64,000 nt of DNA from Nitrospinota bacterium (GTDB lineage Bacteria > Nitrospinota > Nitrospinia > Nitrospinales > VA-1): NCBI GenBank assembly GCA_013349585.1, contig DUZG01000003.1, positions 15,707 through 79,706 on the forward strand, given 5' to 3'. A program made the translations under genes and the position numbers. Below the pieces are notes generated by a model. The model did no database searches. It was not told the DNA's origin and saw only the letters and a program-made list of their open reading frames with translations. Of this stretch, positions 4,801 through 64,000 are shown in pieces. Position 1 is the stretch's first letter. The number at the start of each line of letters is the position of its first letter.

Positions 4801-4938
4801 AAATCATAGCGCGATTAGTTTGTTATTAAAGATCAACAGCGATAGTAGTTATCAACAGAAAATCCAACCCCGCCGAATCTATTACTGTTACTATTTCAGT
4901 GATATGAAAAAAATATCAATACCCCCGCTATCATAGAA

Positions 4939-5795: not shown

Positions 5796-5820
5796 CCCTA
5801 GGCGAAGAAAGTCTATCCGT

Positions 5821-6612: not shown

Positions 6613-6623
6613 TTTAGATGCAA

Positions 6624-7475
6624 CTAGATAGCTTCCTGAATCTCGTCAAAAAAGAAACGCTTTTCAGTTGTCGAAGTTTCACATTCATTGCAATTCACAC
6701 ATACTTTTGGGTAGTCTGCCTTTTCGTGTTGATTACGTAAAGCTTTAATTTCCGAATTATTCCATAGATCGTTGACCCGGTCGCTGTTGGCGTTCCCTAA
6801 TTTAAGAGTCGCGTTATAATCCACACAGCAGGGAATGACAGTACCATCCCAGAGAACAACCAGTTTGCCATAATCCTTGCCGAAGGGTTCTGGGCAGGGT
6901 TCGCTTCGCGGACTTTGAATGAGCTTTGGTTGTGTGCGAACATGATCGACAATGGTTTCCCAGTGCTCGATATATTTTTCAACATCCTCTTGAGTATCTT
7001 CCTCAACTGTAAAGACTACTCCCATACTCAATTCAGGTCGCTTTGCCTCTTTAGTCTTTTTTAATCGAAGAATATTTTCTTTTATTTTTTGAAGTTCGAC
7101 TCCGCGAATCCTTTTAAAAGTATCTGCAGAACCATCTATGGAAAACCGAATTATGTTTAGTGGACTTTCAATGATTTTGTTAATCATCTTATCTGTCAAC
7201 AAAGTTCCATTGGTGTTCATGACAATATGTTTCACACCAGCCTTATGTGCGTAATCGAACATCTCAAAAATTTCTTTGTGCAGTAAAGGCTCTCCCCAGT
7301 TATGCATGCATAGATGTTCAAGGTCGGGAGTGTCATCTATGACCTTTTTGAATAGCTTTAAATCCATGAACCCTTCATCTCGCGTCATGCCTTCTGTCAC
7401 AAAACAAAAAGTGCAACGCAGGTTGCAGGTATTGGTCGGTTCGATGATTAGTGATGTGAGGGGTTTGACGCGCAT
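6624..7475 (-). CDS. Radical SAM protein with SPASM/Twitch domain
   Basis: CNLRCTFC motif, GEPLLH, TNG, and C-terminal CPEP..PCCVD..CVNC. Confidence 0.9.
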   Translation of the reverse strand: MRVKPLTSLIIEPTNTCNLRCTFCFVTEGMTRDEGFMDLKLFKKVIDDTPDLEHLCMHNWGEPLLHKEIFEMFDYAHKAGVKHIVMNTNGTLLTDKMINKIIESPLNIIRFSIDGSADTFKRIRGVELQKIKENILRLKKTKEAKRPELSMGVVFTVEEDTQEDVEKYIEHWETIVDHVRTQPKLIQSPRSEPCPEPFGKDYGKLVVLWDGTVIPCCVDYNATLKLGNANSDRVNDLWNNSEIKALRNQHEKADYPKVCVNCNECETSTTEKRFFFDEIQEAI

Positions 7476-15608: not shown

Positions 15609-18600
15609 TCAAGGGGCGAAACTAAAAAAGTCTAGCTGACTCAAGCTGAACAGAGGTTTGGGAGACCTCTTGGGCGTTTTGTGTGAAGATTGATAAGAGG
15701 CTCTTTTTCCTCCAGAAGTATCCTCAAAATAGGAGGAAGATTTCTGTACCGACTTTCTAAAAGAAATATCAGCCACCTGCTCCTCTTCGAAAGTTGTTTT
15801 AGGTCGTTTGGAAAGGACACTTCTTGATGATCTTTTTCTTTCGGCTATTTGGCTGTTTTCAATCCCAGTTCCTTCCCAGATATTCCCAAGGTTTTCCAAG
15901 CCATCAAAATAGACCGCTGTTTCTTCATCAATCTCTACCAATCCTTTTACTTCGCTAAACAAATTAAGAGGAGGAAGTTTTTTCCTTTTGGCTGTTGCTA
16001 GATCGAGCTTTAAATAAGTTGGTTCAGGGTATTCTAACTGAGTAAATAATTGCCCCGTAGTTTCGTTAGAACGCTGACTTAATTTTTTATCCAGAACGAG
16101 TATGTTTCCCGTATCACGCCGAGTGAATAATACGGATCCCGAAAATGCGGTTGCATTATGTCGGTTGGTGGCGGTTCTTATAAATGAGACGTTAATATCT
16201 CCGGTTCCAGCATGGTTAATTTTAAAAATATCGATAGCATTTGATTCGAAGATATTGATTTTTCCTGATGTGGAATTGTCAATGTCAACCGAGGTCAAAT
16301 TTGTTTCGATAGCGTTGTCTGATGTTCCAAACCCTGTTACCAGGTCGGCTACCAGTCGCCCCGATGTGCTAATATCCAAAGCACTTGTGTCACCATCGCG
16401 AACGCCGCCATTCGTTGAAGTCAAAGTGATGGAAGTGGTTGAAGAGTTTGAGGTGGTGAGCAAGCCAAGAGTAATATCTTGATCGGCTGACAAGTTAATA
16501 GTTTCTGTTCCTGCGTTGAAAGATCCTCCTGTTGCCATTGTTATTGCACCTCCGTTACTCTCGGCCCTTGCAATTATTTTTCCCGAGGTGGTAACGTTTC
16601 CACTAACATTCAGTGATTTGGCACCATTTACTGTCACAGTAAGGTCGCCGCCTATTGTGGAATTCCCCAATGTAAAATCACTGTTACTAACCACTGTTGC
16701 GTTGGCAGTTCCTGATGTGTTGAAGCTAGCTGTGCCAGCGATAGTTAATACGCCAGCACCTGCAATGGCCGCCCCAGATGTTGCAGTCAATGAACCGGTA
16801 GTCGTTACATCAACGCCAAAGTCCATGCCGCCTGTGCCGGCGTTGATAGTAATGTTGCCCAGGCCTGATGAAGCTGTGCCAGAAAAGTTAACTGCACTTC
16901 CCGTTGCTGTTGCGTTCAAGGTTAGTGGTCCAGAAAAAGAAGTTACATTGTCTAATGTCGTGGTTCCATTGGAGTTATTCCCTATTGTCAGATCTGTAGC
17001 AGTGATCTGACTGAGTTCAGTATTATTCAAAGAAAAACTGCCAGCACCTGATCCCAGTCCTATGGTTTGGCCAGACTGCGAAGCCAATAATGTTGCAGTG
17101 CCTGAGTTGATTGCGCTAACGGCACCCAATGCTATATCGCTGGAGATGATAGATAAAGAGTTGCTACTGGTGTTCAATGTTTGGCCTGATGAAATTGTAA
17201 AAATACCACTGCCATTAGCATCACTATCTGAATTGAAACTTGTTGTGTTGTTAGTAGTTAGGTTGGAAGAGAGAGTAATTCCATTTCCGGAATTCACGGT
17301 TAAGACTTTAAAAATAGAAGCGGAATTTTCAAAAATAACCGATGATCCTGAGGATGTTGCATTTAAAGTTACTGATGTGAACTGGTCCGAATCCGTTGAA
17401 GGGATTCCGTCCACCGTGATATTGCCATTGGTGTTATCGCCAACGACCAGATCCCCGGCTATAATTTTTCCCAACTCGGTCGAAGTTAAACTCAAACCGC
17501 AGGTATCGCCGCAGTTGGAGGCTCCTAAGCCGATAGTGGCATTAGCCAGATTTGTTTGAATTGTTGTTGATGCGGTACCGCTACTTAATGTCGATCCTCC
17601 AATTGTCAGTCCATTCGATTTCAGGACAATAGCGCCTGATGCTATGAAATTATTGTTGAGATTTATGGCACCCGTGGATTTAAGCGTTATAGCTCCAGCC
17701 GTTGTGATGTTGCCAGTGTTTGAGGCTAATGTAATGTCTCCGGACGATGTAATGGTGCTGGTATTAATGACCAGTCCTGTTGTGCCAGACAAAGTCGATG
17801 CTCCTTGTCCTGTTATGGTCCCTCCGCTTTGTCCGATGGTCAGTTTTCCAGCAAGATTCAATGAAGTTCCAGATGCAAGGGTAATGCTGCCATTGATCAG
17901 ATTGAGATCACCGGTGATCAGAGCCAGTTCAGTATTACTGATATTCATTCCGGAAAATCCGGAAGTAAACCCCAACCCTAAACTTCCGCTGTTTGATACA
18001 TTAATGGTGGTTGCACTGGTGCCGGTATTTATCGACCCAGTTAAACTCAAATCACTGGCCGTGACAGTCAAAGCGTTATTGGTTGTAGATAAAGCTCCAG
18101 AAATGGTTGTGGTGCCGGTGCCTGAGTTCAGATCTACTGTTCCATTTGCTGAAAGACCGGCAAGAGAAACTCCCGAGCTTGCAGTTAGGTTTGCGGTTGT
18201 TACGGAAGTCAGTGCATTGCCAACAGTAATACTGCCTGTGGAATTTAGAGTGAGCGAACCATTATTAGCTGTAATCGTAGACCCGCCTAAAGTTATATTT
18301 CCTCCAGAAATGCTTGTACCACTTGCCAGAGAAAGCGAGCTTCCTCCTTCTAGATTAATGTTTTCTGCTGCCGTTAGCGTGCTGTTGTCGAGAGTTAGGC
18401 CGCTGTTGGCAGTCATCGTTATAGCACCTTGAGAAACTAGAGCGTTGTCGATATTTATCGTTGAGCTGGTAGAGGTGAGAATCAAGGCTCCCGCAGAGGT
18501 TGTGTTGCTGGCGCTAAGTGTCAATGCACCTGCTGAGCTTAAAGTAACGCCACTTCCTAATGCTAATACTGAAGAGTTTGCGTTGATGCTTAAGTCGCCA

Positions 18601-21053
18601 GAAGATGTGGTAATGCCGCCATTCAAAGTAATACCGGAGCTTGCTACCAGGGCAACGGTTCCGGCGGCTGTTAAATTGCCTGTTGTCGTGATGCTGGTAG
18701 GTGCTGTCAGCGTTAACCCGGCAGCCGCAGTCATACCACCGGTAATGGCACTCAAGCTTATAGCTGTTGCACTGTTTAGAGAAACGCCACTGGCAAAAGT
18801 AATATTATCCTTTGGGTCGATTGTATCGATGCCGTTATCGGAGTCTCCGTTTAAGCTAATAGCTCCTGTAGTTGTGGTGATATCGGCATTGACATTAATT
18901 CCATTAACGGCTTTAGCTTCCAGTGAAGAAAACGAAGAGTCCGCCTGAAATATAATAGCACCATCTGAACCCGAGACATGAGTGTTGACATTCAGCACAA
19001 CACCCTCATTAAAAGAAGTGAGGGTAATTCCATCTACGGTGATATCACCGTTGAGGGTTCCGCCAATGGTGAGCTTATTGCCGCTGATGTTATTCAGCTC
19101 AGATTGCACGATGGACATATCACACAGGCTTGCGAAACCAGCTCCACAACCGGATAACGCGCTGCCACCTAAGAAAATATTTGTGTTCGATCCAATGGTT
19201 ACATTGCCGGTGCCACTGTTAATGTTGCTCGCCAAATTTAAAGTTCTACCTGTTAGAGAAATATCGCCTCCGTTCGAAGTCAAATTTCCTATGATCAGGT
19301 CACCCTTTGCCTCGAAGATGATATTTCCTCCCTGGGTAGAGATGGTGTCATTCGCTCCAAGGAATTGAATATTTCCGGTAGAAGAAACGATATCCCCGTT
19401 AGTGTCTTTGCTGATAAGATTTTTTGTGGTTCGGAAGGTAACTGAGTTGCCGCTACCTTGCTGTAAACTGATAAAAGCAGATCCACCTAAATTCGCGATG
19501 GTGATTTTTTCGTCTGCTTGTAGAATTATATTTGTTGTTCCTGAAATTCCTTGAAGTGTACCAACAGAGATAGTCGCTATTTCGAAAGTAGCCGCACCAC
19601 TGGTGGTAGCTTGCGAACCTGCAACAACGTTAATTTCTTTTGGGTCAAGCAACAATGTTCCGGTTTTTCCATTGGCAGCGGTGGTGTTTACTGACCCATC
19701 AAAAAATAGTTCTTCTTTCCCGGAGACTTCTACGAATCCGCCATTGCCAAAATATTTTCCTCCGCGACCTTTGACAATCCCTTGAAAGTGGATTCTTCGA
19801 TCGGCCCAGAAAATCGTTCTGCCGCCATCACCATAATTCACGGCATCTGCAAATATCAGTGTGCCAGATCCGATATAGGTATCCCATGCATTGGGAACGG
19901 TGCCATTACCCTGATAGTCACCGCCAAACAATAATGTTCCACCTCCAGAATCGCCAGAAACATCTATGAAGCCTGTTCCGTAAAGCCCAACCAGATGGCC
20001 CAGAACATTAATTTCGCCTCCTGTTTCTCCTGCATTGTAACCCGAAGCATCCAGCGTTCCTGAAACATGGACATCGCCTTCATCGCCACCCATCAAAATT
20101 ATTTTTCCATTTTTCTCCATAACAGACCTTGCCTGAATCACGCCATCCATATTGATCACATGGTCTACGATATCTTGTGCGGCATTGACATCCAGCCGAA
20201 CCACACCCCCATCAGCAAAAATACTGCCACTGTTAGTGATTAGAGTGGATAGGGTTTCTCCATCCATTCCTGTTACCTGGTCTACCACTTTGCTGTCGAT
20301 TGCAAGGTTGATCAATTGATCACCATAAAGGTCGAGGGTAAAAGTTTTACCTGAAGCCAGACTCACTTTCCCCAGTCTGGCATTGATCACTCCTAGATTT
20401 TGTACGCCCGGTGCCACCAAGGCCACGAGTCCGCCTTCAGCAGCGGTTATGGTGCCTTGATTGACTATTGAGTTCGAGAAACTGGAGGGGATATCGAAAT
20501 TATAATTTTCACTCAAAAAATTTGAATTGTTAATATTGCTGGTTGTTGCTACTAGACCATGCACGTCCACTTGCGAATTGTTACCAAAGAAAACCCCATT
20601 GGGATTAACCAACCACAAATCACCATTCGATGTCAGTTTTCCTAGAATTTGTGAAGGATCATTTCCCGTTACCCGGTTCAGAGTAACGCCACCCTGTGAT
20701 AACTGGAAGTCAACGTGTTCCATCGTATCGATGTTAAAACTTTCCCAATCAATGATCGCCTTGGTAGTGCCTTGGTAAATATTCATGGTATCAGGGATGG
20801 ACGTATCATCAATTATCACCGAACCAGACTTAATAGTTGGGTCGGTAGGAAGGGCGAAAACGATCGAAGGGAAAATACCTATCAGATAAGTCAAAAATGA
20901 AACCAGAAATATCGCCCAATTGCTTGGCTTCCGGGAGAGTTGGAATACTCGTCCCGGGCGAGAGGCTGATTTCTCACGAGGAAAAGGCATTGTTGGCTTT
21001 TCTCCGGTCTTTGCCGGGCCAAATGCCATCTGATTTATTTTAAAAACGTTCAT
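15609..21053 (-). CDS. Filamentous-haemagglutinin-like TpsA exoprotein
   Basis: Signal peptide ending VFA-LP; TPS domain (IIDWESFNI, TLNRVTG.DPSQILG, NPNG); GGDYQG..GGFVEVSG..G.LLLDP block; long G/S/T/N-rich beta-helix. Confidence 0.92.
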   Translation of the reverse strand: MNVFKINQMAFGPAKTGEKPTMPFPREKSASRPGRVFQLSRKPSNWAIFLVSFLTYLIGIFPSIVFALPTDPTIKSGSVIIDDTSIPDTMNIYQGTTKAIIDWESFNIDTMEHVDFQLSQGGVTLNRVTGNDPSQILGKLTSNGDLWLVNPNGVFFGNNSQVDVHGLVATTSNINNSNFLSENYNFDIPSSFSNSIVNQGTITAAEGGLVALVAPGVQNLGVINARLGKVSLASGKTFTLDLYGDQLINLAIDSKVVDQVTGMDGETLSTLITNSGSIFADGGVVRLDVNAAQDIVDHVINMDGVIQARSVMEKNGKIILMGGDEGDVHVSGTLDASGYNAGETGGEINVLGHLVGLYGTGFIDVSGDSGGGTLLFGGDYQGNGTVPNAWDTYIGSGTLIFADAVNYGDGGRTIFWADRRIHFQGIVKGRGGKYFGNGGFVEVSGKEELFFDGSVNTTAANGKTGTLLLDPKEINVVAGSQATTSGAATFEIATISVGTLQGISGTTNIILQADEKITIANLGGSAFISLQQGSGNSVTFRTTKNLISKDTNGDIVSSTGNIQFLGANDTISTQGGNIIFEAKGDLIIGNLTSNGGDISLTGRTLNLASNINSGTGNVTIGSNTNIFLGGSALSGCGAGFASLCDMSIVQSELNNISGNKLTIGGTLNGDITVDGITLTSFNEGVVLNVNTHVSGSDGAIIFQADSSFSSLEAKAVNGINVNADITTTTGAISLNGDSDNGIDTIDPKDNITFASGVSLNSATAISLSAITGGMTAAAGLTLTAPTSITTTGNLTAAGTVALVASSGITLNGGITTSSGDLSINANSSVLALGSGVTLSSAGALTLSASNTTSAGALILTSTSSTINIDNALVSQGAITMTANSGLTLDNSTLTAAENINLEGGSSLSLASGTSISGGNITLGGSTITANNGSLTLNSTGSITVGNALTSVTTANLTASSGVSLAGLSANGTVDLNSGTGTTTISGALSTTNNALTVTASDLSLTGSINTGTSATTINVSNSGSLGLGFTSGFSGMNISNTELALITGDLNLINGSITLASGTSLNLAGKLTIGQSGGTITGQGASTLSGTTGLVINTSTITSSGDITLASNTGNITTAGAITLKSTGAINLNNNFIASGAIVLKSNGLTIGGSTLSSGTASTTIQTNLANATIGLGASNCGDTCGLSLTSTELGKIIAGDLVVGDNTNGNITVDGIPSTDSDQFTSVTLNATSSGSSVIFENSASIFKVLTVNSGNGITLSSNLTTNNTTSFNSDSDANGSGIFTISSGQTLNTSSNSLSIISSDIALGAVSAINSGTATLLASQSGQTIGLGSGAGSFSLNNTELSQITATDLTIGNNSNGTTTLDNVTSFSGPLTLNATATGSAVNFSGTASSGLGNITINAGTGGMDFGVDVTTTGSLTATSGAAIAGAGVLTIAGTASFNTSGTANATVVSNSDFTLGNSTIGGDLTVTVNGAKSLNVSGNVTTSGKIIARAESNGGAITMATGGSFNAGTETINLSADQDITLGLLTTSNSSTTSITLTSTNGGVRDGDTSALDISTSGRLVADLVTGFGTSDNAIETNLTSVDIDNSTSGKINIFESNAIDIFKINHAGTGDINVSFIRTATNRHNATAFSGSVLFTRRDTGNILVLDKKLSQRSNETTGQLFTQLEYPEPTYLKLDLATAKRKKLPPLNLFSEVKGLVEIDEETAVYFDGLENLGNIWEGTGIENSQIAERKRSSRSVLSKRPKTTFEEEQVADISFRKSVQKSSSYFEDTSGGKRASYQSSHKTPKRSPKPLFSLSQLDFFSFAP

Positions 21054-21061
21054 CTGTAAAC

Positions 21062-22801
21062 TTAAAAATGTGTCGACAAGCTGAAAAACATTCGGGTGTC
21101 CTTGTTGCCCTCTGCCGAGACATCTCGGTTTAGAGGCTTGTCAAATTCAACATACCCGGAAATATAATCCGTAACATTGAATCTCAATCCCATACCAATA
21201 GAACTGAGGTCTTGTTTGCTGGAGCCGGTTGAAGTTTTGATTCGACTCCACACCGTTCCATAATCGAAAAATGTATATGCCTGGATGTCTTGAATGTAGG
21301 CTCTATTGATTTGAAAGGCTTTTTGTAACTCAAGCTTTAAAGCCAAGCCATGGTCACCTGTAATTTCTGAAGGATCAAAAGCCCGTCCAAATTGTGAGCC
21401 ACCTACTCCAAACTCTTGGGGTGCCAATAGTTTTTCAAAAGAGTATTGCCACGATGCAGCGCCCAATAACATCCAGGAAGGAACCAGTTGTTGCAGTCGA
21501 AGCACTTCTCCAGAGATTTTTGAAAAGTTAGCTCTGCCTTCGGGGCGCGAAAGCTTGAGTCCGCCCGATTCGCTGGCGCCAAAAATGTTTAGTCCCTGGC
21601 TCCAGTTAATGCTAAGTAAGTTGACCCCGCGATAACTGTCGACGAAATCGTAAGACAAACCAAAATTGGCGATGCGTAATTTATCTTTCGAATTCGTATC
21701 ACCCAAAAATTTTGTAGTGGAATCTCTGCGGGCAAAACCAAAAAACGTGTTCAAGTTTTCAGCGCGAGATCGGATGATAGGATGTGTCACTCGCAACGTG
21801 AAAGCGGTGCTATTTCCTTTCACATCAAAAACTTCAAGATCCGCACCGGGTTGAGACTTGCTGGCTGAACCAGAAAAATAAATTTTAGTTCCTTCAGAAA
21901 AGACAGGCTGTTCATAAAATCCACTAAAGAACCTCAGCTCATCGGTTTGTTTTGTAATTACCCCTTGAAAGCCGATTCGTTCATAAAGCCCTAGCAAAGA
22001 ATTTGTGCTGGCATTGCTAGAAAACTGGATGGGTCCGTTGAATTTTGAACCACGGTTATCGACTCCAAGACTTCCTGCGTATCTTTTATTCTCAAAAATC
22101 AAGGTCAGGTCGGTAGCCCCTGATTGAACTTTAGAAGGCGTTAAAACCGATTTCACTGTCACGCCGGGCAAGTCATCTACTAAAAGCAAATATCGCTCGA
22201 GATCTTTGGCAAGTAGCGGTTTGGATTTTAAAAGCTTCTTGCGATATTTATTAAGTAAGCTTCTCGGGCCGATAACATCTCCCTGAACATTGACCTTGTC
22301 CACGAAACCTTCTATGACATCGATACGGATGACCCCTCTGTCAATTTGTTGCGGAGGAACAACAGCTTTGCTCAAAATGTATCCGTCATTCCTGTACATA
22401 TTCGTAATTGTTTGTGCAATGCCATACACATGCCCTAACGAAATACGCTTTCGCATATACTTTTTAAATAATCTGGAAAACCTGCGTTTGCTGTAAAGGG
22501 TCGAACCCTTAATAACCATTTTTCGCAAAATAAACTTTACCTTCCGCAACTCCTCGGGAAACATAGGTTTGAGATTGTCTTTTCGTACGGGTATCTTTTG
22601 CGCTTTTGGTTTTGCTTGCTTCTTGAAGCGTTCTTCGAATCGGAGTGGGGAGGCCTGCTTATAAACTTGATCCCGCCCTTGGGAAGAAATCTGGGCAAAA
22701 GAGGGCAAGGCAAAAAAATTACAGAAGAGAAGGCAAAAAGCCCCTACTGTAAGAATTTTATTTTTGAAATTAGTTGTAACCAAATCCACCACCATATTCA
22801 T
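21062..22801 (-). CDS. TpsB (ShlB/FhaC/HecB family) outer-membrane transporter
   Basis: Signal peptide, POTRA domains (YRNDGYILS..VPPQ..G..RI.VIEG, LERYLLL..DLPG), DNRG motif, C-terminal Phe; directly upstream of tpsA. Confidence 0.93.
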   Translation of the reverse strand: MNMVVDLVTTNFKNKILTVGAFCLLFCNFFALPSFAQISSQGRDQVYKQASPLRFEERFKKQAKPKAQKIPVRKDNLKPMFPEELRKVKFILRKMVIKGSTLYSKRRFSRLFKKYMRKRISLGHVYGIAQTITNMYRNDGYILSKAVVPPQQIDRGVIRIDVIEGFVDKVNVQGDVIGPRSLLNKYRKKLLKSKPLLAKDLERYLLLVDDLPGVTVKSVLTPSKVQSGATDLTLIFENKRYAGSLGVDNRGSKFNGPIQFSSNASTNSLLGLYERIGFQGVITKQTDELRFFSGFYEQPVFSEGTKIYFSGSASKSQPGADLEVFDVKGNSTAFTLRVTHPIIRSRAENLNTFFGFARRDSTTKFLGDTNSKDKLRIANFGLSYDFVDSYRGVNLLSINWSQGLNIFGASESGGLKLSRPEGRANFSKISGEVLRLQQLVPSWMLLGAASWQYSFEKLLAPQEFGVGGSQFGRAFDPSEITGDHGLALKLELQKAFQINRAYIQDIQAYTFFDYGTVWSRIKTSTGSSKQDLSSIGMGLRFNVTDYISGYVEFDKPLNRDVSAEGNKDTRMFFSLSTHF

Positions 22802-48533: not shown

Positions 48534-48952
48534 TTGAAATGGCAGGAGTCTGAGACAGTTAGGAATCTGTTGAAGAAGCAAAATAGCTTGTTGGGGGATT
48601 CCCTGGAAGCACTGGATCACCGGATCTATTTGCAAAAAAGTATAAACCTCCTTAGTTCCGAAAGTTACGAAGAAATCAGCAAGGTCATGGCAGAAAAGTT
48701 GCCTTCCATTTTATCTGTAAATTTTTTTTTCTGTTTGATAAAGATCGCAGGAAATTACGACTACTCAGCCACAATCACCCCGAATTGCAGGAAGGTTTGA
48801 CTCTTTACCAGAGTGTGACGGTCAGTTGCGGCATAGCCGAGTTCGATTCGAACCTTATCAAGAGTCCCGTCGACCTTGTCAAGGTTGCTGATGAGGCCTT
48901 GTACAAGGCCAAAAATGAAGGCAGGAACCGAACGATTGTAGGAACGCCATGA
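48534..48952 (+). pseudogene. Sensor diguanylate cyclase remnant (catalytic core deleted)
   Basis: GAF-like start, frameshift at the poly-T near 48722, then ..LTLYQS joined directly to the GGDEF C-terminal end VTVSCGIAE..ADEALYKAKNEGRNR; no GG(D/E)EF motif. Confidence 0.75.
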
Positions 48953-49706
48953 CAAAATCTCTCGATTGGTTTCGAACTATAAAAAACCTTCCTTCTCTTC
49001 CTGAGCAGATCAACAGCTTGCTTGTTGCCACAGGTTCTACTTCTTCTATGGACTATAATATTGCTGAAATTATTCAATACGATCCGTGCATGGCACTCAG
49101 TGTTTTAAAATTTGCGAACAGCCCTGTCTATGGGTATTCGGGTAAAATATCTTCTTTGCAACAGGCGGCAGGTCTTTTGGGGCCGGGAACCATTAAAAAT
49201 ATCATACTGCGCACACCTATTCTGGGAAGGCATTTGACCAACCGCCAAAATGATACCCCGATAGACTTTAGCGACTTATGGGTGCATTGTGGAGCAACAG
49301 CATCTCTGTCAGGCGATCTGGGTCGCTTGATTGGCGGCCTGGAATTGGATGTTTGTTTTACTGCAGGATTGATTCACGATGCCGGGATTATCGCACTATC
49401 TGCATATTATCCAAAAGAGCTGGCGAAAGCATGGAACTGATGAAGGCTTGGAATTTTCCTGAGTCTCTTTCAGGTTTATACCGTTCAGATGACAAAGATA
49501 ATAAATTCCGTTGGGTTTTCAAACCGATTACGGTTGTGGTATTGGCAAAACTACTTTTAAAGGAATGGGGTTATCCCGATTGTTCTCACATGCAAGGGGA
49601 ACCAGATAAGGAACAATTACTGCAATTTTTGAAAATTACGACGGATGATTTACCAACTGGGAAGTTGAGCTTAGAAAATATGTGGTGTTGTCTATGCGTG
49701 TTTTAA
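48949..49706 (+). pseudogene. HDOD domain protein, internally deleted and frameshifted
   Basis: LPSLP, DP....VLKFANSP.YG, LW.H, GLIHDAG, stop at 49440. The remainder (LMKAWNFPE..) continues in another frame and lacks the H..IG helix. Confidence 0.75.
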
Positions 49707-53930: not shown

Positions 53931-54655
53931 CTAGACTGAGAAATCGAGAATGCGTGCTCGGGATTGTTCGTTCTGAATTTGAGACGCCAGGGCGCAGATG
54001 GATGTTTCGAATCTCAATAAGCCTTGTTGCAGGCGGGGCACTTCTTCAACGAGATCGGTGTCGGCCAGACCAGGTTCTGCTTGGATCAGGTTCTCGATTT
54101 GCGAATTCAATCCATTAGCGGCACTTGCCAATCGGTTTCCAACTGCACCGACTTGGCCCCGGGCAGAGTTTAGCGTTTGCGCAGCTCTTTCGAAGTCATC
54201 TATCGCTTGCAAGGCGCCTTGCAAGCGATAAATGTTTGCGTTACCCATCCCCAAGGATTCGTTTGTAACACTCTCTACGACATTGAGGTTGATCTGGTTT
54301 GACGCTCCTGATCCAGAACCTGCTTGAATGTTTACCGGATCGGCGCTTGGAGCAAGGGAGCCGTCTAAAAGTGTTTGCCTATTTAACTCCAGGGAGCCGG
54401 TCAATCGATCTATTTCGCTTTGAATTTGTGTGGACTCCTGATTTAAAGCCTGCCTTTGTGAATCGTTCAAAGTTCCATTGCTAGATTGAATTGAAAGCTC
54501 TCTTCAACGGCTAACCAGATTGGAAACTCCGGCAAGCCCGCCATCAGCTGTACGCGTAAAATTCGCTCCAGTGAATTTTGCAGGCTAGATCGGTTCCGAT
54601 TTATCGTGTTTAGTAACTGGCTGAATGTTCCACCACCTATGGGATCGACCATTAT
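53931..54655 (-). pseudogene. Flagellin (FliC-like) pseudogene
   Basis: N-terminal ..SSLQNSLERI is joined out of frame to RTADGGLAGVSNLVSR*RELSIQSSNGTL..R..LNQE..EIDR. C-terminal RGQVGAVGNRL..ENL..AE..LADTD. Confidence 0.85.
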
Positions 54656-54934
54656 CTTCGTCCAAATAGAAATGTTATTGATACCCATTCTACTGACCTT
54701 AGAGCTAAAAGGTCAACCGGCATAAGTTCAAATTAGCGAAAGCCTTTAGAATAACGCTTAACTTTCTGACTAATTCTTGGTTTTGTTAGGGGGGGATTTA
54801 AATTATTTTGTAAGAATTTAGAAGAAATGACGACTATTGGATAGCTAGAAAAAATGTTTATCGGCCCATCCATATTTATAACGAGGTAGAATTAATGCCA
54901 GGGGCAAATATAAAATTAAGCAATAAGGGGAAGT

Positions 54935-58116: not shown

Positions 58117-58716
58117 ATGAAGGTGTCCATCAATGGAGTTGAGCAAGTAGAATCCGATTTTAAAGGCGATACATTAGGAGCTATCCTTGACTCTATGGTA
58201 AAAAAAAACCTTGGCTCCTATATAAGGCGAATGTGGCTGGATGATAAAGAATCCTCTTCCGATGACCAGGAAGCCCTGAAAAAAAAACCTTCCGATATTG
58301 ATTCTCTTGAAGTCGAACTGGCTAATTTGAAAGATCTGGTAGCCACCAATCTCGCAAATGCCCTCAATTATCTAAAAAAGCTCATCCCGGGCTTTGAGCA
58401 GGCTGCAGATTTATTTCGTGCTGGAAATGAACAGGAAGCCAATAAATATTACCTGCAAATTCTGGATGGTATCGACTGGTTCTCCCAAGTCGTTAGCATA
58501 ATAATGAATCCGGACGAAGGTGAAATGGAGCTACCCGACGCTGATGATGAAAATTTACAGGCGCGGCAGAAAAAGCTAACCGACTTGATGAGCCAGATGC
58601 TGGAAGCTAACCAGAATCAAGACTGGGTGCTTCTGGCAGATCTCCTAGAATATGAAATGGTACCTTTTTATAAGGACTGGGAAAATATTCTCACCAAATT
58701 AGAAAACCCGCATTAA
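58117..58716 (+). CDS. Hypothetical flagella-locus protein (DWVLLADLLEYE motif)
   Basis: RBS aagga. I recall this C-terminal motif from proteins in flagellin/Maf loci; not checked. Confidence 0.7.
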   Translation: MKVSINGVEQVESDFKGDTLGAILDSMVKKNLGSYIRRMWLDDKESSSDDQEALKKKPSDIDSLEVELANLKDLVATNLANALNYLKKLIPGFEQAADLFRAGNEQEANKYYLQILDGIDWFSQVVSIIMNPDEGEMELPDADDENLQARQKKLTDLMSQMLEANQNQDWVLLADLLEYEMVPFYKDWENILTKLENPH

Positions 58717-58849
58717 TTTATTCCTCCGAGCCTTTTTTATTTTATTCAAGCAACTATCTGAAAAATAAAGTTTTATTTTTTTTTGAGTGGAATCTTATAG
58801 ACGATAGTCAGTGAATATAGCTAATTTAAAAAAAGTCCTAAATTAGAGC

Positions 58850-58876
58850 TAAAGTTTGGTTGCTTTTTGCCGATAA
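58850..58876 (+). promoter_or_regulatory. Sigma28 (FliA) promoter
   Basis: TAAA-15 nt-GCCGATAA, exact consensus and spacing. Confidence 0.85.
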
Positions 58877-59123
58877 GAAAAGAGTAGGATATTAAGCCTC
58901 TCTGGGGTAAAGGTAATTGTTGGGAGGAGGGTTTTACAGGCTTTATTTTTTTAGAAGTGTTTTTTAGCAAAAGGATACTTGCAGCCTGATTATCTTATCG
59001 GACAAAGTTGCTAAAGCTTTACCAAGCAATTGATTTTTTATCGATAAGAGTTTCAGATATCAGGAAGCAACCCCAGGGGCCGAGTACCAAAACCGAAATA
59101 ATACCGATTAGTAGGGGGATGCT

Positions 59124-60110
59124 ATGGCTGGAGAAGTAGGTAACTTTCCATTAGATCAGGGAAACACCAGTGCCTTAAGGGGGCTGGAACAATCCCGTGA
59201 AGAGGTAGGGCGACCTCGCCGGCTTGATGACGCGGAAGAAGATTTAAGAAATCCGGGACGTGCTCGCGAACCCGCGGCAGAAGAAGAAAGAGACGTTTCT
59301 CGACCTGCCCGAACAGAAGATCGCGTTGAAATTACTCAGGATGCTTTCGATCAGAACCAGGCGGCTGAACGTAATCGCGCAGAGACCCAAACCGAGGAAG
59401 TTCGGCAGGCAGTCGATCAAGAAGAGGCTGATCAGCAAGAGTCGATTCAAGGGCAGGCAATTGCCGAACGGCGCGTTGCATCTGAAGATTCTCTTCGACG
59501 AAATCGAACAGAACCCACTCCCAACAACACAGGTGATTTAGCGCAGGTTGCAGGTCCTGGAGGTTCTGACCCAGAAGAATCCCTCGACGAAGGTTTTCAA
59601 CTGGGCAATACCCAGACGAACCCCAATCGCACTGAAGAATTTGCCCTGCGGAATCAGATAGATAATCCAGAGGAAGCTGCTGCTACGACGAACAACTTGG
59701 GTTCTAATTCAAGCTCCCGAGATGCAAGCAGAGATACAAATAATGATGTTGCTGATGCGCCAGAGCAGCAAAACATCCAATTAAAGCAAAGAATCGAATC
59801 CGACAATGCTGAAATTAGAGGAGCTGAAGAGGTAGAGGTTCAGGAAAACAATCTTTCTGAAACAGGGGCGAATGTCCCAGAAACGAGAGCCGAGCAAAGA
59901 GCTGAGGTTGCGCAAGAAGCAGCCCGTAATGAACCGCCTTTGGATATCCCTGCAGTAGATGTAGAGCAAATTGAGGAAGTTCGTGAGCCCTTGCTGGAAG
60001 CTCAGGATACTAATCCGTTACGTGCGCCTAGGCCTTCAGAAATTAGGGATGAGCCGGATGCTACGGCTATAGAAACTGAACGTGGACAGAATGTCAGTAG
60101 TTTAATTTAA
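59124..60110 (+). CDS. Acidic, low-complexity hypothetical protein, probable flagellar export substrate
   Basis: 328 aa, RBS ggggga, rich in E/A/R/Q/N/D, with DRVEIT motif and C-terminal ETERGQNVSSLI. Confidence 0.75.
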   Translation: MAGEVGNFPLDQGNTSALRGLEQSREEVGRPRRLDDAEEDLRNPGRAREPAAEEERDVSRPARTEDRVEITQDAFDQNQAAERNRAETQTEEVRQAVDQEEADQQESIQGQAIAERRVASEDSLRRNRTEPTPNNTGDLAQVAGPGGSDPEESLDEGFQLGNTQTNPNRTEEFALRNQIDNPEEAAATTNNLGSNSSSRDASRDTNNDVADAPEQQNIQLKQRIESDNAEIRGAEEVEVQENNLSETGANVPETRAEQRAEVAQEAARNEPPLDIPAVDVEQIEEVREPLLEAQDTNPLRAPRPSEIRDEPDATAIETERGQNVSSLI

Positions 60111-60120
60111 GTAACGAACC

Positions 60121-60382
60121 GCGCCCGCCAGCAGAATGCTGTCTGGGCCTTATTGTACAACTCATCAAGAGGAGACAAGCCAGAACTGGAACACCCCATC
60201 GCTTAGAAGAGGATCTCGATTAATATTGGAATGGTTTGCGGCCTTGACCAATATTAAACGAAGGTTCAGATTCTGATTTAAGGCCCGTCAGGGGCACCTG
60301 TCACATCGGCGTGGTCTGTCGCCTTACGGCGAAAGTACGTCACCGGTGGATAGCACGCACTGGCGAGGCGGGCGTTTTTTTT
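60121..60382 (+). ncRNA. Candidate structured non-coding RNA (~255 nt), family unassigned
   Basis: Nested long-range helices with G-U pairs only on the + strand, and a closing stem followed by a T-run (details in findings). Confidence 0.55.
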
Positions 60383-60483
60383 CCGGTAAATCTGTGGAAC
60401 TCCGATCTTGATGTGTTTATCGACATTTTCGATTAAACACTTTATAGGCGAAACAAGTTATTTTCGCCAGACCGGAAAAAAAC

Positions 60484-62310
60484 GTGCAGGTTCTCAATAA
60501 TACCCCCCCAACATTTTTCCCTTTTAATTCCAGTCGAACGACCAGCAAAAACCATGCTGTCAATGTGGCCAGGGATACCCTGAATCAGGTAGGCAATAAC
60601 TCCCAAAATAAAAGCCAAACCTTATTTGATGCGGTTTTTTTAAATAAAAGGCAGGTTCCTCAGCTAGAGGCCACCGGACCTCTTGCAGCTTTTAGAACGG
60701 CGGATGCGATCGCGCTTCTCAGCCAGCGTTCCCAATCCCAAAAACTTCCCATCATAGAGAACCTGGATAAAAAGCAGTCATTTGCTCTTGCCCGATTGCG
60801 TCAATTGGATGGTCTTACAGGCTCGCTAAAAGAACTGCAGCAAACCGTAGCCGATTTGGAAAATGCCTTGAATCCGAAATCGGCTTCTTCGTCCCGTTTC
60901 AGGGAAGTTCTTGCCGCGGCGGGCAAAAATGCACCGCTGAATAGTTTTGATGTCAGATCTGTAAGGTTATCGCGGACGGCAGAACTGGTTTCAGATGTAA
61001 AAGATCCCTCGCAAAAACTGGGCCTGAGCGGCAGATTTTTTATCAATGGCGTTCCTATTACGGTTGTTTCGACCGACTCGTTGTTCACAATTAAAAATAA
61101 AATCAATTTTGGGGAAGATGTAAACCAAAACGGTACCCTCGATCTTTCGGAAGATGTTGATCGGAATGGAACCCTTGGGATATTACAGGTGGCTAATTCC
61201 GAATTTGGTGAGGGAATTTTTATAAAGGAAGATATAAATGGAAACGGAGAGATCGATCCCACAGAAGACAGCAATTCCAACAAGCGGCTTGATGGAGGGT
61301 CTTTTGAAAACAATGTGCTGGCCCTAATTAGAGACAACCGACTTGTTCTGGTAAGTCTCGCAGGAGGCAGTAATACCATTGATTTAAGGGAAGACGACAG
61401 CGTTCTTTTGGGTCTTGGTTTTTTTGAGATTGTTAATGAAGGATTGTCGGTTCAAAAAGAGATTCAATTAAACGATTTAAAAACTCGTGAAAATCTGATC
61501 GTCCAACCGCAAACCGCAATCGTTGAAGTGGACGGAAAGTTTTTCAGCAGTAATACCGATGTCGTTTTTGGAGTAATTGAAGACACCGCTTTGTTGTTGC
61601 AGCAGGCTTCGGAAAAGTCTGCGAAGATCACTGTTTTTATTGATGCGCCTATCTTTTTTGAACAAATCAAAATTCTGTTCAGCCAGTTCAATAATTCAAT
61701 CGCAAAAATAAATGACCTGCTTGCAATTAGCAATTCTTTTGAGGGGGACGGCGATATTCAGGACATTCGCAATGACCTGACCATCGACCCTCAAAAACAG
61801 GCTCGTGTTTTGCAGGAAAGAAATCGGATTATCGATGACCTCCGCGGCAGACCAGGAAACACGCAAGCAACAGGTATTTCCGTGGGGAATACAGAAAAAA
61901 AGACCCAGCAGGAGGTTGCCGTTACCTCCATTGTTAAAGGAATTAAAAGTGGATTGAGTTTTCCATCTCAAAATGGCGGTGAAAACTTATTAAAAAGATT
62001 GAGTTCGGTTGGAATTCGAACATTGACCGACAACACCTTTGCGATTGATGAAACGGAATTCAAACGTGGACTGGAAAAAAATACGCTCGAAGTGTTTGAT
62101 CTGTTTACAAACTCTGAAACCGGAATCCTTCCTCTACTTACCGAGAGGCTGGAAAATATTGTACTTGAAGGTCGCGGTGATCTGGCAATCAAGCAAACCA
62201 AAGTGATTATTCAATCCGGTACTCCTAATATCCTGGCAGAAAATTTTCGCAAGTTTACCGAGAACTTAAATCTGGGTACGACTGTTCAAACCTTAATCGC
62301 GGTGGCCTGA
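60484..62310 (+). CDS. FliD-like (filament cap/HAP2) protein with EF-hand-like insertion
   Basis: FliD-like segments (SASSS..A...A...FDV....L; A.VEVDG...SS.T; L.SVGI....IDE.EF...L....V..LF..S.TGI); atypical termini. Confidence 0.7.
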   Translation: MQVLNNTPPTFFPFNSSRTTSKNHAVNVARDTLNQVGNNSQNKSQTLFDAVFLNKRQVPQLEATGPLAAFRTADAIALLSQRSQSQKLPIIENLDKKQSFALARLRQLDGLTGSLKELQQTVADLENALNPKSASSSRFREVLAAAGKNAPLNSFDVRSVRLSRTAELVSDVKDPSQKLGLSGRFFINGVPITVVSTDSLFTIKNKINFGEDVNQNGTLDLSEDVDRNGTLGILQVANSEFGEGIFIKEDINGNGEIDPTEDSNSNKRLDGGSFENNVLALIRDNRLVLVSLAGGSNTIDLREDDSVLLGLGFFEIVNEGLSVQKEIQLNDLKTRENLIVQPQTAIVEVDGKFFSSNTDVVFGVIEDTALLLQQASEKSAKITVFIDAPIFFEQIKILFSQFNNSIAKINDLLAISNSFEGDGDIQDIRNDLTIDPQKQARVLQERNRIIDDLRGRPGNTQATGISVGNTEKKTQQEVAVTSIVKGIKSGLSFPSQNGGENLLKRLSSVGIRTLTDNTFAIDETEFKRGLEKNTLEVFDLFTNSETGILPLLTERLENIVLEGRGDLAIKQTKVIIQSGTPNILAENFRKFTENLNLGTTVQTLIAVA

Positions 62311-62312
62311 CT

Positions 62313-62741
62313 ATGAAAGAAGCAAAGATCAAAACAATTCTTGAAAATAAAATAACCCTTTTGGCAAGGCTGACAGAGCAAATGGTGAAACAAGTAAAGG
62401 CCATCGACCAAAATGACGAGTCTTCACTCACTGAAATCCTTGATGAAAAAGAAGCCGTGATTGAGTCATTGGCCAGTGATGACCGGGAGTTAGAAAAAGG
62501 TGTTGCACTTCTGGATGAGAAAATCCGGGTTGCGATTGCGAACAAGTTGAAAGAGCTAGGAATTCAGATCAAGAGTGAGATAGAAAAAATTACAGGAATG
62601 GAAAACGATTGCGAGAAAAAATTGCTCAACGAAAAATTAGAATTACTTGAAAAAATGAAGTCGACGAGAAACGGGCGTACCTTATTAAAAGGATACGGGA
62701 TTTCAGCGAGGATCAGGCCAAAAATATCGGGAAGTATTTAA
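62313..62741 (+). CDS. FlgN/FliT-like flagellar export chaperone
   Basis: 142-aa helical protein (L..L..Q...I...D...L..IL.EK...I..L), ending ..LKGY; 2 bp after the fliD-like gene. Confidence 0.55.
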   Translation: MKEAKIKTILENKITLLARLTEQMVKQVKAIDQNDESSLTEILDEKEAVIESLASDDRELEKGVALLDEKIRVAIANKLKELGIQIKSEIEKITGMENDCEKKLLNEKLELLEKMKSTRNGRTLLKGYGISARIRPKISGSI

Positions 62742-62756
62742 CGGAGAAAGACAATT

Positions 62757-63017
62757 ATGGAATTTTCAATAGTACCGGTAAGCAGGGTTTTTAAAACATA
62801 TCAGGGGCAGGCACGCATTGCCGACTTGAATAAGAAAAGTTCAGTTAAAAGAGCTCAGGGGCAAAAGGACCAAGTTATCATTTCCAGCTCAGCGCGACAG
62901 GCTTTGCAGAAAAACCCCAGGGGGGATGCTCCCGTTCCAACTGCTAACTTAGAAGCGGTTGCAAGTACCAGCAAGTCAGCCCCAGCAGCGAGTGGTGACT
63001 TTGTTCCGGGGATATAA
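62757..63017 (+). CDS. Small FlgM-like protein
   Basis: RBS ggag; VFKTY..Q and KDQVIISSSARQ resemble the FlgM N-terminal D-x-V-x-IS motif; no clear sigma28-binding C-terminal helices. Confidence 0.5.
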   Translation: MEFSIVPVSRVFKTYQGQARIADLNKKSSVKRAQGQKDQVIISSSARQALQKNPRGDAPVPTANLEAVASTSKSAPAASGDFVPGI

Positions 63018-63110
63018 ATTTTCTTTTGATCTTTAGTGCTGGTTTTCGTTTTGATTGTGCCCCGGGTCTGTTAATATTCCCTCCTGATAAAAACTTCTAA
63101 ATTTTATTTT

Positions 63111-64000
63111 ATGATTTGTATCCCCATCGTCGGCGCCTCCATGCCTAAAGCATTGGAGCAAATCACCTCAGCAGAAAAAATAGCTGATATTCTGGAGTTA
63201 CGTCTTGATCTGATCGACTCTCCTGATCTTAAAGTGCTTTTAAATGCGGTTAGTAAACCCGTTATTGTCACCAATCGAAGTAAGTTGGATGGGGGGCAGT
63301 TCAAGGGCAATGATGATGAACGCCTGCAAGCATTGAGTGATGCTTTGGCAGCAGGGGCTGACTATGTAGATATCGAGGTTTCAACGCCACGCGAATTTTT
63401 GCAGCCGTTTTTAGAAGGCCACGAAACTTCGCGAATCATTGTTTCTTACCATGATTTTTCCCATACTCCTGAAGATTTGAATCCGCTTTACGAAACGATG
63501 AGCGCTTTACCAGGTGGAATTATTAAAATTGTCACCTATGCCCGCGACCTCAGCGATAACCTTAAGATGTTCCAGCTTCTTGAGCGTGCAAAAAAAGAAA
63601 ACAAAAAACTAATAGGACTTTGTATGGGCGATCTGGGGGAGATAAGCCGTGTGCTTTCTCCGCTCTACGGAGGTTTGCTCACCTTTGGTAGCCTTGAAAC
63701 AGGGCAAGAAAGCGCACCGGGCCAGATTCCGGCAAATGCCCTGAAAAATATTTATCGCGTTAATGATGAGCGCGAAAACTTTAAGGTATATGGAGTAATT
63801 GGCAATCCGGTTTCTAAAAGCATGGGTTACCTGATTCATAACCGGGCTTTCCATGAAACAGGTTCTCACAATATTTATGTTTCGTTTTTAGTGGAGAATG
63901 TTGAAAAGTTTTTTATCGCCTTCAAAGATTTCTTTTCAGGGCTGAGCGTCACAATGCCTGCAAAGGAGAACATTATGTCGTTATTGGATAAGGTTGATGC
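63111..64000 (+). CDS. aroD-aroE: Type I 3-dehydroquinate dehydratase fused to shikimate dehydrogenase (3'-truncated)
   Basis: MICIPI..ELRLD..T.R..DGG..ADYVDIE..SYHDF..MG..G.ISR..SAPGQI, then YGVIGNPV.KS..HN..GLSVTMP.K; missing from the ORF track because it runs off the window. Confidence 0.92.
   Translation, partial: MICIPIVGASMPKALEQITSAEKIADILELRLDLIDSPDLKVLLNAVSKPVIVTNRSKLDGGQFKGNDDERLQALSDALAAGADYVDIEVSTPREFLQPFLEGHETSRIIVSYHDFSHTPEDLNPLYETMSALPGGIIKIVTYARDLSDNLKMFQLLERAKKENKKLIGLCMGDLGEISRVLSPLYGGLLTFGSLETGQESAPGQIPANALKNIYRVNDERENFKVYGVIGNPVSKSMGYLIHNRAFHETGSHNIYVSFLVENVEKFFIAFKDFFSGLSVTMPAKENIMSLLDKVD

Follow-up and report, generated by a model that had tools for sequence, protein, structure and literature searches.

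A candidate sigma-28-controlled accessory flagellar module of the Nitrospinota, with a second FliD-type cap gene, two orphan proteins and a candidate new structured RNA

Introduction

The motility of the Nitrospinota, the main nitrite oxidisers of the ocean, has to our knowledge hardly been described. On a 64-kb stretch of a genome from this phylum (assembly GCA_013349585.1, contig DUZG01000003.1, positions 15,707 to 79,706; hereafter the window), five intact, co-oriented open reading frames (ORFs) at positions 58117-63017, namely orf199 and ORFs of 328, 608, 142 and 86 amino acids (aa), raise the question of what a set of late flagellar genes is doing behind a sigma-28 promoter-like site whose first gene is an acidic orphan in the flagellin position. 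An initial annotation, made from the sequence of the window, read this unit as a flagellum-derived secretion or appendage module that would export non-flagellin substrates through a retained FliFGHIJ core, independently of a working flagellum. No description of the module appears among the papers listed by literature searches on Nitrospina flagella, FliD, motility and genome; in the available portions of one paper, the Nitrospinae are mentioned only for the distribution of FlgV (PMC11607428).

Here we find that the components of this unit are of known kinds, arranged in a new, phylum-specific way, together with two orphan proteins and an undescribed RNA. On balance, we consider it probable that the unit is a Nitrospinota-specific, sigma-28-controlled accessory flagellar module, which is neither an ordinary fliD/fliT/flgM set nor a separate secretion system.

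Results

The unit is a set of paralogues beside a canonical flagellum

The host assembly is 76% complete at 2.02 Mb. In addition to the unit, the window carries fliF, fliG, fliH, fliI and fliJ, about 16 kb away from it, as well as a rod gene and sigma-54 activators. The statement of the initial annotation that fliC and fliS are absent is correct within the window and fails for the genome as a whole, which has seven Flagellin_N matches, six of them on contig C31 and four in intact genes of 285-304 aa; a canonical FliD (540 aa, E 2e-38; FliD1 below) followed by FliS on contig C79; and one flgM gene split over the overlapping ends of two contigs (C13, 2-235, minus strand, and C34, at 1480-1662 of L011), so that its two Pfam hits represent a single gene. 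FlgK was not found in the host genome and is present in five of five complete relatives; we ascribe the miss to the incomplete assembly. A canonical flagellum therefore lies elsewhere in this genome, but the genes of the unit are extra paralogues and not its ordinary fliD, fliT and flgM.

This paralogy is consistent across the five near-complete relatives that we compared, which come from three families. Every one of them has two FliD_C genes, one encoding 540-591 aa (E 1e-38 to 1e-45) and the other 615-627 aa (E 1e-13 to 1e-25), and two FlgN genes, the stronger of which stands directly beside FlgK and the second of which is that of the unit (FlgN2). FlgM matches of the canonical kind number two in most of the sampled genomes, and no such match falls at the locus of the unit. 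With two FliD_C and two FlgN genes per genome and the canonical FlgM elsewhere, the unit is best described as a set of paralogues.

A survey of 102 genomes from 22 genera of the order Nitrospinales gave a FliD_C match in 86 genomes and two or more matches in 72. The 16 genomes without any FliD_C match, seven of which are at least 90% complete, have neither paralogue. Of the 14 genomes with a single match, some have the canonical gene alone (including two at 92% and 97% completeness), and those with a gene of the FliD2 type alone are all 57-89% complete. Near-complete genomes without FliD_C (G085-G088, G067, G057 and G023) look non-flagellate, and G086, G087, G023 and G057 among them keep one FlgM-family hit.

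These distributions bear directly on the secretion or appendage module proposed at the outset. The acidic protein and the 86-aa protein are disordered, have no signal peptide by eye and occupy the positions of flagellin and of a late substrate behind a sigma-28 promoter; non-flagellar proteins are secreted through the flagellar apparatus in other bacteria. The idea that flagellin and FliS have been replaced on a retained export machine is nevertheless contradicted by the flagellins, FliD1, FliS and FlgM encoded in the same genome, and the unit was not seen without a flagellum in any of the 102 genomes, nor without FliD1 in any genome that is at least 90% complete. We regard a module that works independently of a flagellum as highly improbable.

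Gene order is conserved over the order Nitrospinales

The order orf199, acidic gene, FliD2, FlgN2, p86 recurs across four families of the order, in a synteny set of 18 loci made up of the window and 17 others. FliD2, the 608-aa product, is present in 33 of 41 relatives and in 21 of the 22 of these that are at least 90% complete. When 185,579 species genomes were scanned with a pattern, an approach biased towards the loop motif used, 76 loci were recovered, 65 of which are titled Nitrospin*, two Candidatus Nitromaritima and nine with another or no taxon name (four of these nine are only 25-27% identical). Named isolates and enrichments are among the sources of related loci. Over these 76 loci, many of them cut by contig ends, family hidden Markov models (HMMs) recovered FliD2 at 72, FlgN2 adjacent to FliD2 at 66, p86 at 56, orf199 at 41 (many truncated) and the acidic gene at 40. 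The part of the initial proposal that is borne out is that the unit is distinct and conserved, consists of late genes of flagellum type headed by a sigma-28 site, and includes an RNA element and non-flagellin products. An NCBIfam scan of the five proteins of the unit gave nothing near any cut-off.

FliD2 is a divergent cap paralogue with calcium-type loops

FliD2 (60484-62310, plus strand, GUG start) is a divergent paralogue of the filament cap protein (HAP2). It matches Pfam FliD_C over residues 343-574 at 40.9 bits against a cut-off of 25.4 (E 2.1e-10; E 9.6e-12 in the genome search), and its match to FliD_N over residues 80-158 stays under the cut-off (19.6 against 24.8 bits); PF02465 is precomputed in some orthologues. 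An AlphaFold2 (AF2) model built with 19 orthologues has a mean predicted local distance difference test (pLDDT) score of 63.5, with core blocks at 80-93, and aligns in Foldseek with the FliD structures of Salmonella, E. coli and Campylobacter (E 3e-16 to 1e-5, prob 1.00, template-modelling score up to 0.69 on the target). The model indicates that the 608-aa protein has a true FliD fold.

Two features set FliD2 apart, an N-terminal extension of about 80 aa and tandem loops of the DxNxNG calcium type. A search with the pattern D-x-[DN]-x-[DN]-G, position 12 being acidic, gives three such loops, at residues 212, 224 and 250, and the loop residues are invariant in 19 orthologues, in agreement with the FliD-like gene with EF-hand-like loops that had been noticed at first. 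The loop region is modelled at a pLDDT below 50 and gives no Pfam EF-hand hit; calcium binding is a pattern-based candidate property. Against FliD1 of its own genome, FliD2 gives a BLASTP match of only E 0.03.

In three Planctomycetia metagenome-assembled genomes (MAGs; loci L157-L159, near 4434-6644) we observed FliD-like proteins of 644-654 aa with one DxNGNG loop, which match FliD2 at E ~1e-25 (E 3e-25 by BLASTP). These proteins are closer to FliD2 than FliD2 is to its own FliD1, and the other genes of the unit were not found beside them.

The chaperone gene is of FlgN type and the last gene is not flgM

The gene that follows FliD2 after 3 nt (FlgN2; 62313-62741, plus strand) encodes a 142-aa protein which by itself is below threshold for Pfam FlgN (14.6 against 30.5 bits, E 0.046). 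Its orthologues are more informative: 15 of 18 match FlgN (E ≤ 0.1, best 3.2e-13), the copy at the locus exceeds the FlgN cut-off in two of five complete genomes, and the family profile matches the FlgN structure 5b3d in register (E 0.034). Judged by these profile matches, the protein belongs to the FlgN family. The initial label of FlgN/FliT-like thus holds for its first half, with FliT touched by only five of the 18 orthologues.

This arrangement resembles enterobacterial fliD-fliS-fliT in its FliD fold with a FliD_C domain, in the small helical gene of a chaperone family directly after it and in the sigma-28 site upstream. It differs in that FliD2, with its extension and tandem loops, is a second copy beside a canonical FliD-FliS pair, that the adjacent chaperone is of FlgN and not FliT type, and that no fliS is adjacent. 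In the available portions of PMC8527033, the chaperone-substrate pairs are given as FlgN with FlgK/FlgL, FliS with FliC and FliT with FliD.

Sixteen nucleotides further on, p86 (62757-63017, plus strand) encodes a basic orphan protein of 86 aa with an isoelectric point (pI) of 10.2. About 50 conserved N-terminal residues end in Q-x-D-x-V-x-[IL]-S-x-x-A and are followed by a variable tail after about residue 52. It is present at 17 of 18 loci; in a set of 1.84 billion proteins its relatives form no more than 74 representative clusters, all of them short and aligning from residue 1 onwards, and those that are named are called hypothetical. The co-oriented, intact ORFs of 142 and 86 aa were correctly read in the initial annotation, and the description of the second as FlgM-like did not stand. 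No Pfam family matches p86 at E ≤ 1, genome searches with PF04316 (FlgM) never match the locus, and only two of 18 orthologues reach FlgM at E 0.01. In hhalign, the p86 family and 15 FlgM proteins of Nitrospinales share 20 columns around Q-x-D-x-V-x-[IL]-S-S-x-A (E 0.01, probability 4%); p86 was rejected as FlgM on the absence of a Pfam match, this low probability and the absence of the C-terminal half.

The same stretch aligns p86 with the acidic protein (hhalign E 0.014; the motif alignments have probabilities of 3-4% over about 20 columns), and the profile comparison of the acidic family with FlgM gave nothing. A motif D-x-V-x-(I/L)-(S/T/N) had been noted in three products of the unit. It is conserved in two of them, the acidic protein (D-R/K-V invariant) and p86 (D-x-V-x-x-S), and the DAVFLN of FliD2 is not conserved. 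Like FlgM, these two proteins are small or disordered and carry D-x-V-x-[IL]-S/T-x-x-A, with which the Pfam FlgM domain begins. Unlike FlgM, p86 has no C-terminal helices and no Pfam hit, and two canonical FlgM genes are found elsewhere in most relatives. By their alignments, a conserved motif of the FlgM type is common to the two products, and both fall outside the FlgM family. A complex prediction for FliA with residues 1-60 of p86 scored 0.00, without controls, and speaks neither for nor against binding. In the ESM Atlas, p86 falls among unnamed clusters, the nearest named ones scoring at most 0.90 (such as a Campylobacter flagellar-secreted family at 0.86) and serving as leads only.

Taken together, these identities allow the simplest account to be weighed, in which the unit consists of an ordinary fliD, fliT/flgN and flgM that are poorly conserved and hold nothing of interest beyond annotation. 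Public records do call the 608-aa protein "flagellar filament capping protein FliD", and the unit lies close to fliFGHIJ and occurs only together with flagellar genes. Against this, a far better FliD (E 2e-38 against 9.6e-12) stands beside fliS on another contig, relatives hold a canonical FlgN beside FlgK and two canonical FlgM genes elsewhere, FliD2 matches some Planctomycetia proteins far better than its own FliD1, and p86 fails as FlgM. We consider this account very unlikely, and retain an accessory module as the probable one.

The acidic protein is a fast-evolving orphan

The first gene behind the promoter-like site (59124-60110, plus strand) encodes, as the initial annotation had it, an acidic protein of 328 aa; it is of low complexity, with a pI of 4.25, 76 D+E against 35 K+R and 16% hydrophobic residues. 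A comparable ORF, 184-585 aa long, stands in this position at 17 of 17 other loci. Alignment of the family reveals a conserved N-terminus with the invariant D-R/K-V, and a conserved C-terminal end of the form G-x-N-[VI]-x-x-[LMF]-I. None of 12 members has a Pfam domain, and the named public relatives are all "hypothetical protein", none with a Pfam domain. The ORF represents a genuine orphan gene that is evolving rapidly, and its product looks abundant.

In two or three sea-water runs, RNA contigs show this ORF with in-frame deletions, of 579 nt (59393-59973) and 168 nt (59522-59691), as would be expected for a coding but disordered region. The same deletions indicate length polymorphism of the acidic protein among natural strains.

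Three sigma-28 sites are conserved in position and orientation

The site that heads the unit (P1; 58850-58876, plus strand) is the sole exact match to TAAAGTTT-N11-GCCGATAA in the window, and none of 100 shuffles of the window gives any. This consensus is that of enterobacteria and was also the one given in the initial annotation, which had named the promoter correctly. A genome scan at a looser threshold, scored out of 16 on both strands of the whole 2.02-Mb assembly, passed 28 sites, among which P1 ranks first at 16/16. Other matches stand in front of flagellin genes (C31) and of the canonical fliD (C79), so the enterobacterial consensus seems to apply in this host, which itself encodes FliA. 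P1 conforms to the pattern of a class 3 sigma-28 (FliA) promoter and is a predicted promoter on this basis. The expected leader of about 240 nt separates it from the ATG at 59124; as a structured RNA, the leader (58878-59123) is not unusual against shuffles (z -0.87).

Two further sites lie on the minus strand. P2 (TAAAGCTT-N11-TCCGATAA, 14/16; 58995-59021) is within the leader and faces P1, and P3 (TAAAGTGT-N12-GTCGATAA, 14/16; 60417-60444) lies about 40 nt upstream of the FliD2 start and points back into the RNA element described below and the acidic gene. Conservation was examined at the 54 loci with enough upstream sequence, by scanning 4.7-kb stretches. A plus-strand site upstream of the acidic gene was found at 50 of these loci, a facing plus/minus pair 60-400 nt apart (P1/P2) at 40, a minus-strand site near the FliD2 start (P3) at 36 and all three together at 29, with hardly any further sigma-28 sites in the same stretches. 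Three Planctomycetia loci taken as controls have none, and in the genome scan no reverse partner was found beside the flagellin or canonical fliD promoters of the host. Nothing convincing was found among small ORFs on the minus strand downstream of P2 or P3.

The conservation of P2 and P3 suggests a function, most simply sigma-28-dependent antisense transcription that would damp or time expression of the acidic gene and perhaps of orf199. The alternative that both are non-functional by-products of chance or of local palindromes draws on the fact that P3 lies within a near-palindrome in the genus of the window. We think it quite unlikely: three of only 28 sites in about 2 Mb (both strands) fall inside 1.6 kb here, the position and orientation of P2 and P3 are kept across four families whose surrounding sequence cannot be aligned, and the control loci are devoid of such sites.

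In E. coli, FliA directs the synthesis of many unstable RNAs from intragenic promoters, according to the available portions of two reports (PMC4183435; 10.1101/2020.09.09.289983). P2 and P3 would resemble the intragenic and antisense FliA promoters described there for E. coli and Salmonella in driving non-coding or antisense transcripts inside a flagellar locus. As far as those portions go, they differ from them in holding position and orientation over four families, and in that one of them faces the main promoter at a distance of 117-280 nt.

A covariation-supported RNA element follows the acidic gene

The 373-nt spacer after the acidic ORF folds far more stably than its shuffles (z -6.5, none of 100 as stable), which upholds the folded element first noticed between the acidic ORF and the FliD-like gene. 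The element (60107-60390, plus strand) is about 280 nt long and multi-branched, with a GC-rich, long-range closing stem followed by U8. Its 5' boundary is the stop codon of the acidic ORF, and its U8 (60376-60383) ends about 95 nt before fliD2. Rfam gave no match at gathering scores, and the lone match at E ≤ 10 (E 1.3, chance level) lies elsewhere in 58700-63200.

By DNA search, the element is present in 31 of the 102 genomes of the order, in three of 22 genera, all in the family of the window, and it is single-copy in the host genome. A MAFFT alignment of 25 copies yielded an RNAalifold structure of 80 pairs, which is 92.7% paired compared with 34-47% when the alignment is slid, and 23 pairs change on both sides compared with 11.2 ± 1.9 in shuffles (none of 500 reach this number). 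A covariance model built from this alignment (R1) found 35 strong copies, comprising the window, L038 and 33 of the 76 loci; all of them are on the strand of FliD2 and end about 95-100 nt before its start. With divergent copies included, 28 full-length copies show compensatory changes in 47 of 80 pairs compared with 21.6 ± 2.6 in shuffles (none of 500), and 91.0% of cells pair compared with 36-46% when slid; this second alignment was fitted to the R1 model and hence leans towards the structure. R1 had no hits in other families, where the spacer in the same place is short or not unusually structured (z 0.15 in family f4 and -2.1 in family f2). These comparative data support a structured RNA, a candidate for a new RNA family, which is a family-level elaboration of the terminator region of the acidic gene.

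Within the RNA domain an AGAGGA motif is invariant, and after the closing stem a tract of U8-U10, at most interrupted by single bases, is found in all 25 aligned copies. The tract together with CCGG (60376-60388) is complementary to the ACCGGAAAAAA stretch (60469-60481) just before the FliD2 GUG in the two best-sampled genera, with a CUGG wobble variant in two copies; the pairing was not seen in more distant genera. Read-through transcripts could, on the strength of this complementarity, mask the ribosome-binding region of FliD2.

Such a pairing would also suit an element that acts in cis as the leader of fliD2, an attenuator of riboswitch-like or protein-binding type in which the long-range stem and U-tract decide between termination and read-through, as opposed to a trans-acting 3' untranslated region (UTR) RNA. 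In favour of a leader are a structured domain followed by a terminator some 95 nt upstream of the gene that would be regulated, in all 35 copies, the invariant AGAGGA inside the domain, and the pairing before the GUG with its wobble variants. The terminator stem, however, encloses the whole domain and does not compete with it, the pairing is confined as described, no ligand or protein is indicated and Rfam gives no riboswitch match. A cis-acting leader is in our view doubtful; we return to a 3'-UTR RNA as the preferred description.

The closest parallels known to us for the RNA are FliX and other sigma-28-dependent UTR-derived small RNAs of E. coli (Melamed et al. 2023, PMC10578931). As in the case of FliX, the element forms the 3' end of a gene that has a sigma-28 promoter upstream and stands where flagellin would; its place is the 3' UTR of the gene behind P1, at whose terminator it ends. 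The sizes are comparable (~200 nt for FliX, ~280 nt here), and a weak hint suggests that the element, too, is probably more abundant than the body of its mRNA. There is no sequence or Rfam relation between the two, our element is far more structured (80 modelled pairs), its host gene is not a flagellin, and a downstream gene begins within 100 nt of it, which makes a cis role equally possible.

The several GGA motifs raised the idea of a CsrA sponge, which was set aside; neither CsrA nor FliW was found in the 76%-complete host genome, and relatives were not searched. Many MAG contigs begin or end within the element: seven of the 76 loci start inside it (L086, L087, L092, L095, L104, L106 and L109), and in several genomes it is split over two contigs (G012, G016, G074 and G078 are among the contig-end cases). 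As the element is single-copy in the host genome, strain heterogeneity or assembly trouble is the likely cause.

Discussion

A working model for the unit

The mechanism that we propose starts from the late release of sigma-28, upon which P1 would fire and give rise to an mRNA for the acidic protein. In the family of the window, this mRNA would end in the ~280-nt structured 3' domain, which would double as an intrinsic terminator and probably accumulates as a stable RNA, in the manner of the fliC 3'-UTR RNA FliX of E. coli. Read-through past the terminator would yield FliD2, FlgN2 and p86. By analogy with FliT and FlgN, FlgN2 may be a dedicated export chaperone for FliD2 and possibly for the acidic protein, both candidate substrates having conserved C-terminal ends. 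FliD2 would be exported through the flagellar type III apparatus and might form an alternative or additional filament cap, possibly calcium-dependent. P2, which faces P1, and P3, which looks back from fliD2, could drive antisense transcription by sigma-28, through which expression of the acidic gene and its neighbours would be limited or timed.

If so, the phylum-specific combination of a second cap with calcium-type loops, a dedicated chaperone and two disordered orphan proteins, all behind the best sigma-28 site of the genome, suggests that the flagellar tip or flagellar secretion is modified in a way not yet described. The RNA is a candidate new family with strong covariation support, which as a weak hint appears abundant in sea-water metatranscriptomes, and the conserved sigma-28 sites that face each other would exemplify antisense control that evolution has maintained within a flagellar regulon, a rare occurrence.

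A bolder version would have the locus act as a self-contained sigma-28 timing and output device of a kind not known elsewhere. Here the strongest sigma-28 promoter of the cell would produce an acidic protein with an FlgM motif and a new structured RNA that gates read-through into a calcium-dependent cap and its chaperone, two conserved convergent antisense promoters would shut down the unit and orf199, and the acidic protein and p86 would be secreted through the flagellum or would titrate sigma-28, so as to provide marine nitrite oxidisers with a second flagellar state such as particle attachment. We hold this version to be a long shot, and the accessory module without these additions remains the one that we favour.

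Points that weigh against this reading

Several observations count against the accessory module as modelled above. Export, chaperone pairing and cap function are argued by analogy with known flagellar proteins. One sub-clade has neither p86 nor orf199, by both the 18-locus synteny and the 76-locus HMM counts. Since the RNA is restricted to one family (three of 22 genera), the module must be able to do without it. As sequences, P2 and P3 are consensus matches only. No promoter of its own was recognised for FliD2, a simple scan of 60384-60483 being empty; by eye, only weak or off-spacing matches were seen for a sigma-54 or sigma-70 promoter of fliD2, and these candidates were rejected.

The strand of the RNA belongs here as well. 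In the closing stem, 43 A.C cells stand against four G.U, the pattern expected if wobbles form on the minus strand. In RNAalifold the minus strand has a small energy advantage (-124.9 against -117.8 for the plus strand), and by single-sequence minimum free energy only 10 of 24 copies favour the plus strand; folding energies fail to separate the two strands and were dropped as a means of assignment. The ratio of G.U to A.C cells is 249:80 overall and 245:37 in internal helices, with A-U or C-G taking the place of near-invariant G.U pairs in divergent copies, a pattern in favour of the plus strand. On balance, we think the plus strand the more likely source of the RNA.

The converse would be that transcription from P3 yields a minus-strand small RNA, dependent on sigma-28 and antisense to the acidic-gene mRNA at its 3' end. 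P3 does lie about 35 nt upstream of the domain on that strand and is kept at 36 of 54 loci, the minus strand folds at least as well, and helices predicted on both strands have 41 A.C against 14 G.U, in line with the closing stem. The internal helices, together with the replacement of near-invariant G.U pairs, speak the other way; moreover, the U8-U10 tract acts as a terminator on the plus strand only, and P3 is also kept in families without the structured element. We judge a minus-strand RNA to be unlikely, and proceed with a plus-strand RNA that ends at the U-tract.

Expression hints come from metatranscriptome contigs of four sea-water runs from four studies, which give no strand, ends or reliable levels and whose depth cannot rank genes. 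Among the matches listed, 23 sea-water RNA runs carry part of the stretch. In three of the four runs, the deepest contigs lie on 60072-60433 (217.5 and 81.2 in X1, 49.4 in X3 and 12.8 in X5); contigs on the acidic ORF reach at most 35 (X1), 11 (X3) and 5.2 (X5), and fliD2 has close to nothing, with the caveat that stretches without contig cover, such as most of fliD2 in X1, X3 and X5, carry no information. Run X2 has hardly any cover on the element. In two studies, contigs start at 60026 and 60031. As a weak hint, the element may be an abundant RNA species in sea water.

Neighbouring genes and other features of the window

Upstream of P1, orf199 (58117-58716, plus strand) adjoins the unit at 16 of 18 loci with 34-90% identity. 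Its AF2 model (mean pLDDT 85.2) has a beta-grasp-like N-terminal part and a four-helix bundle. Foldseek with this model returned generic four-helix bundles only and no match in the Protein Data Bank (PDB) at E ≤ 0.001, the local Pfam copy gave no hit, and PDB profile searches with orf199 and p86 gave chance-level hits only. The nearest ESM Atlas clusters are of the DUF8042/TP0873_N kind (score 0.96, 232/256 shared features), and no paper in the literature collection searched contains the name DUF8042 or TP0873. TP0873 presumably neighbours the fliD gene of Treponema.

Elsewhere in the window, a short flagellin-like gene (53931-54688, minus strand) consists of two overlapping ORFs (54467-54688 and 53931-54470) and looks frameshifted or broken, or else reflects an assembly error; its Flagellin_N match at 54357-54569 has one in-frame TGA, and Flagellin_C lies in the 179-aa ORF. 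An HDOD-domain gene (48949-49706, plus strand) is likewise present as two overlapping ORFs of 163 and 142 aa, suggesting a frameshift or sequencing error. At 15609-22801 on the minus strand, a two-partner-secretion (TPS) pair is encoded, consisting of a 1814-aa TPS-domain protein beside a transporter of the ShlB/FhaC type with a POTRA domain.

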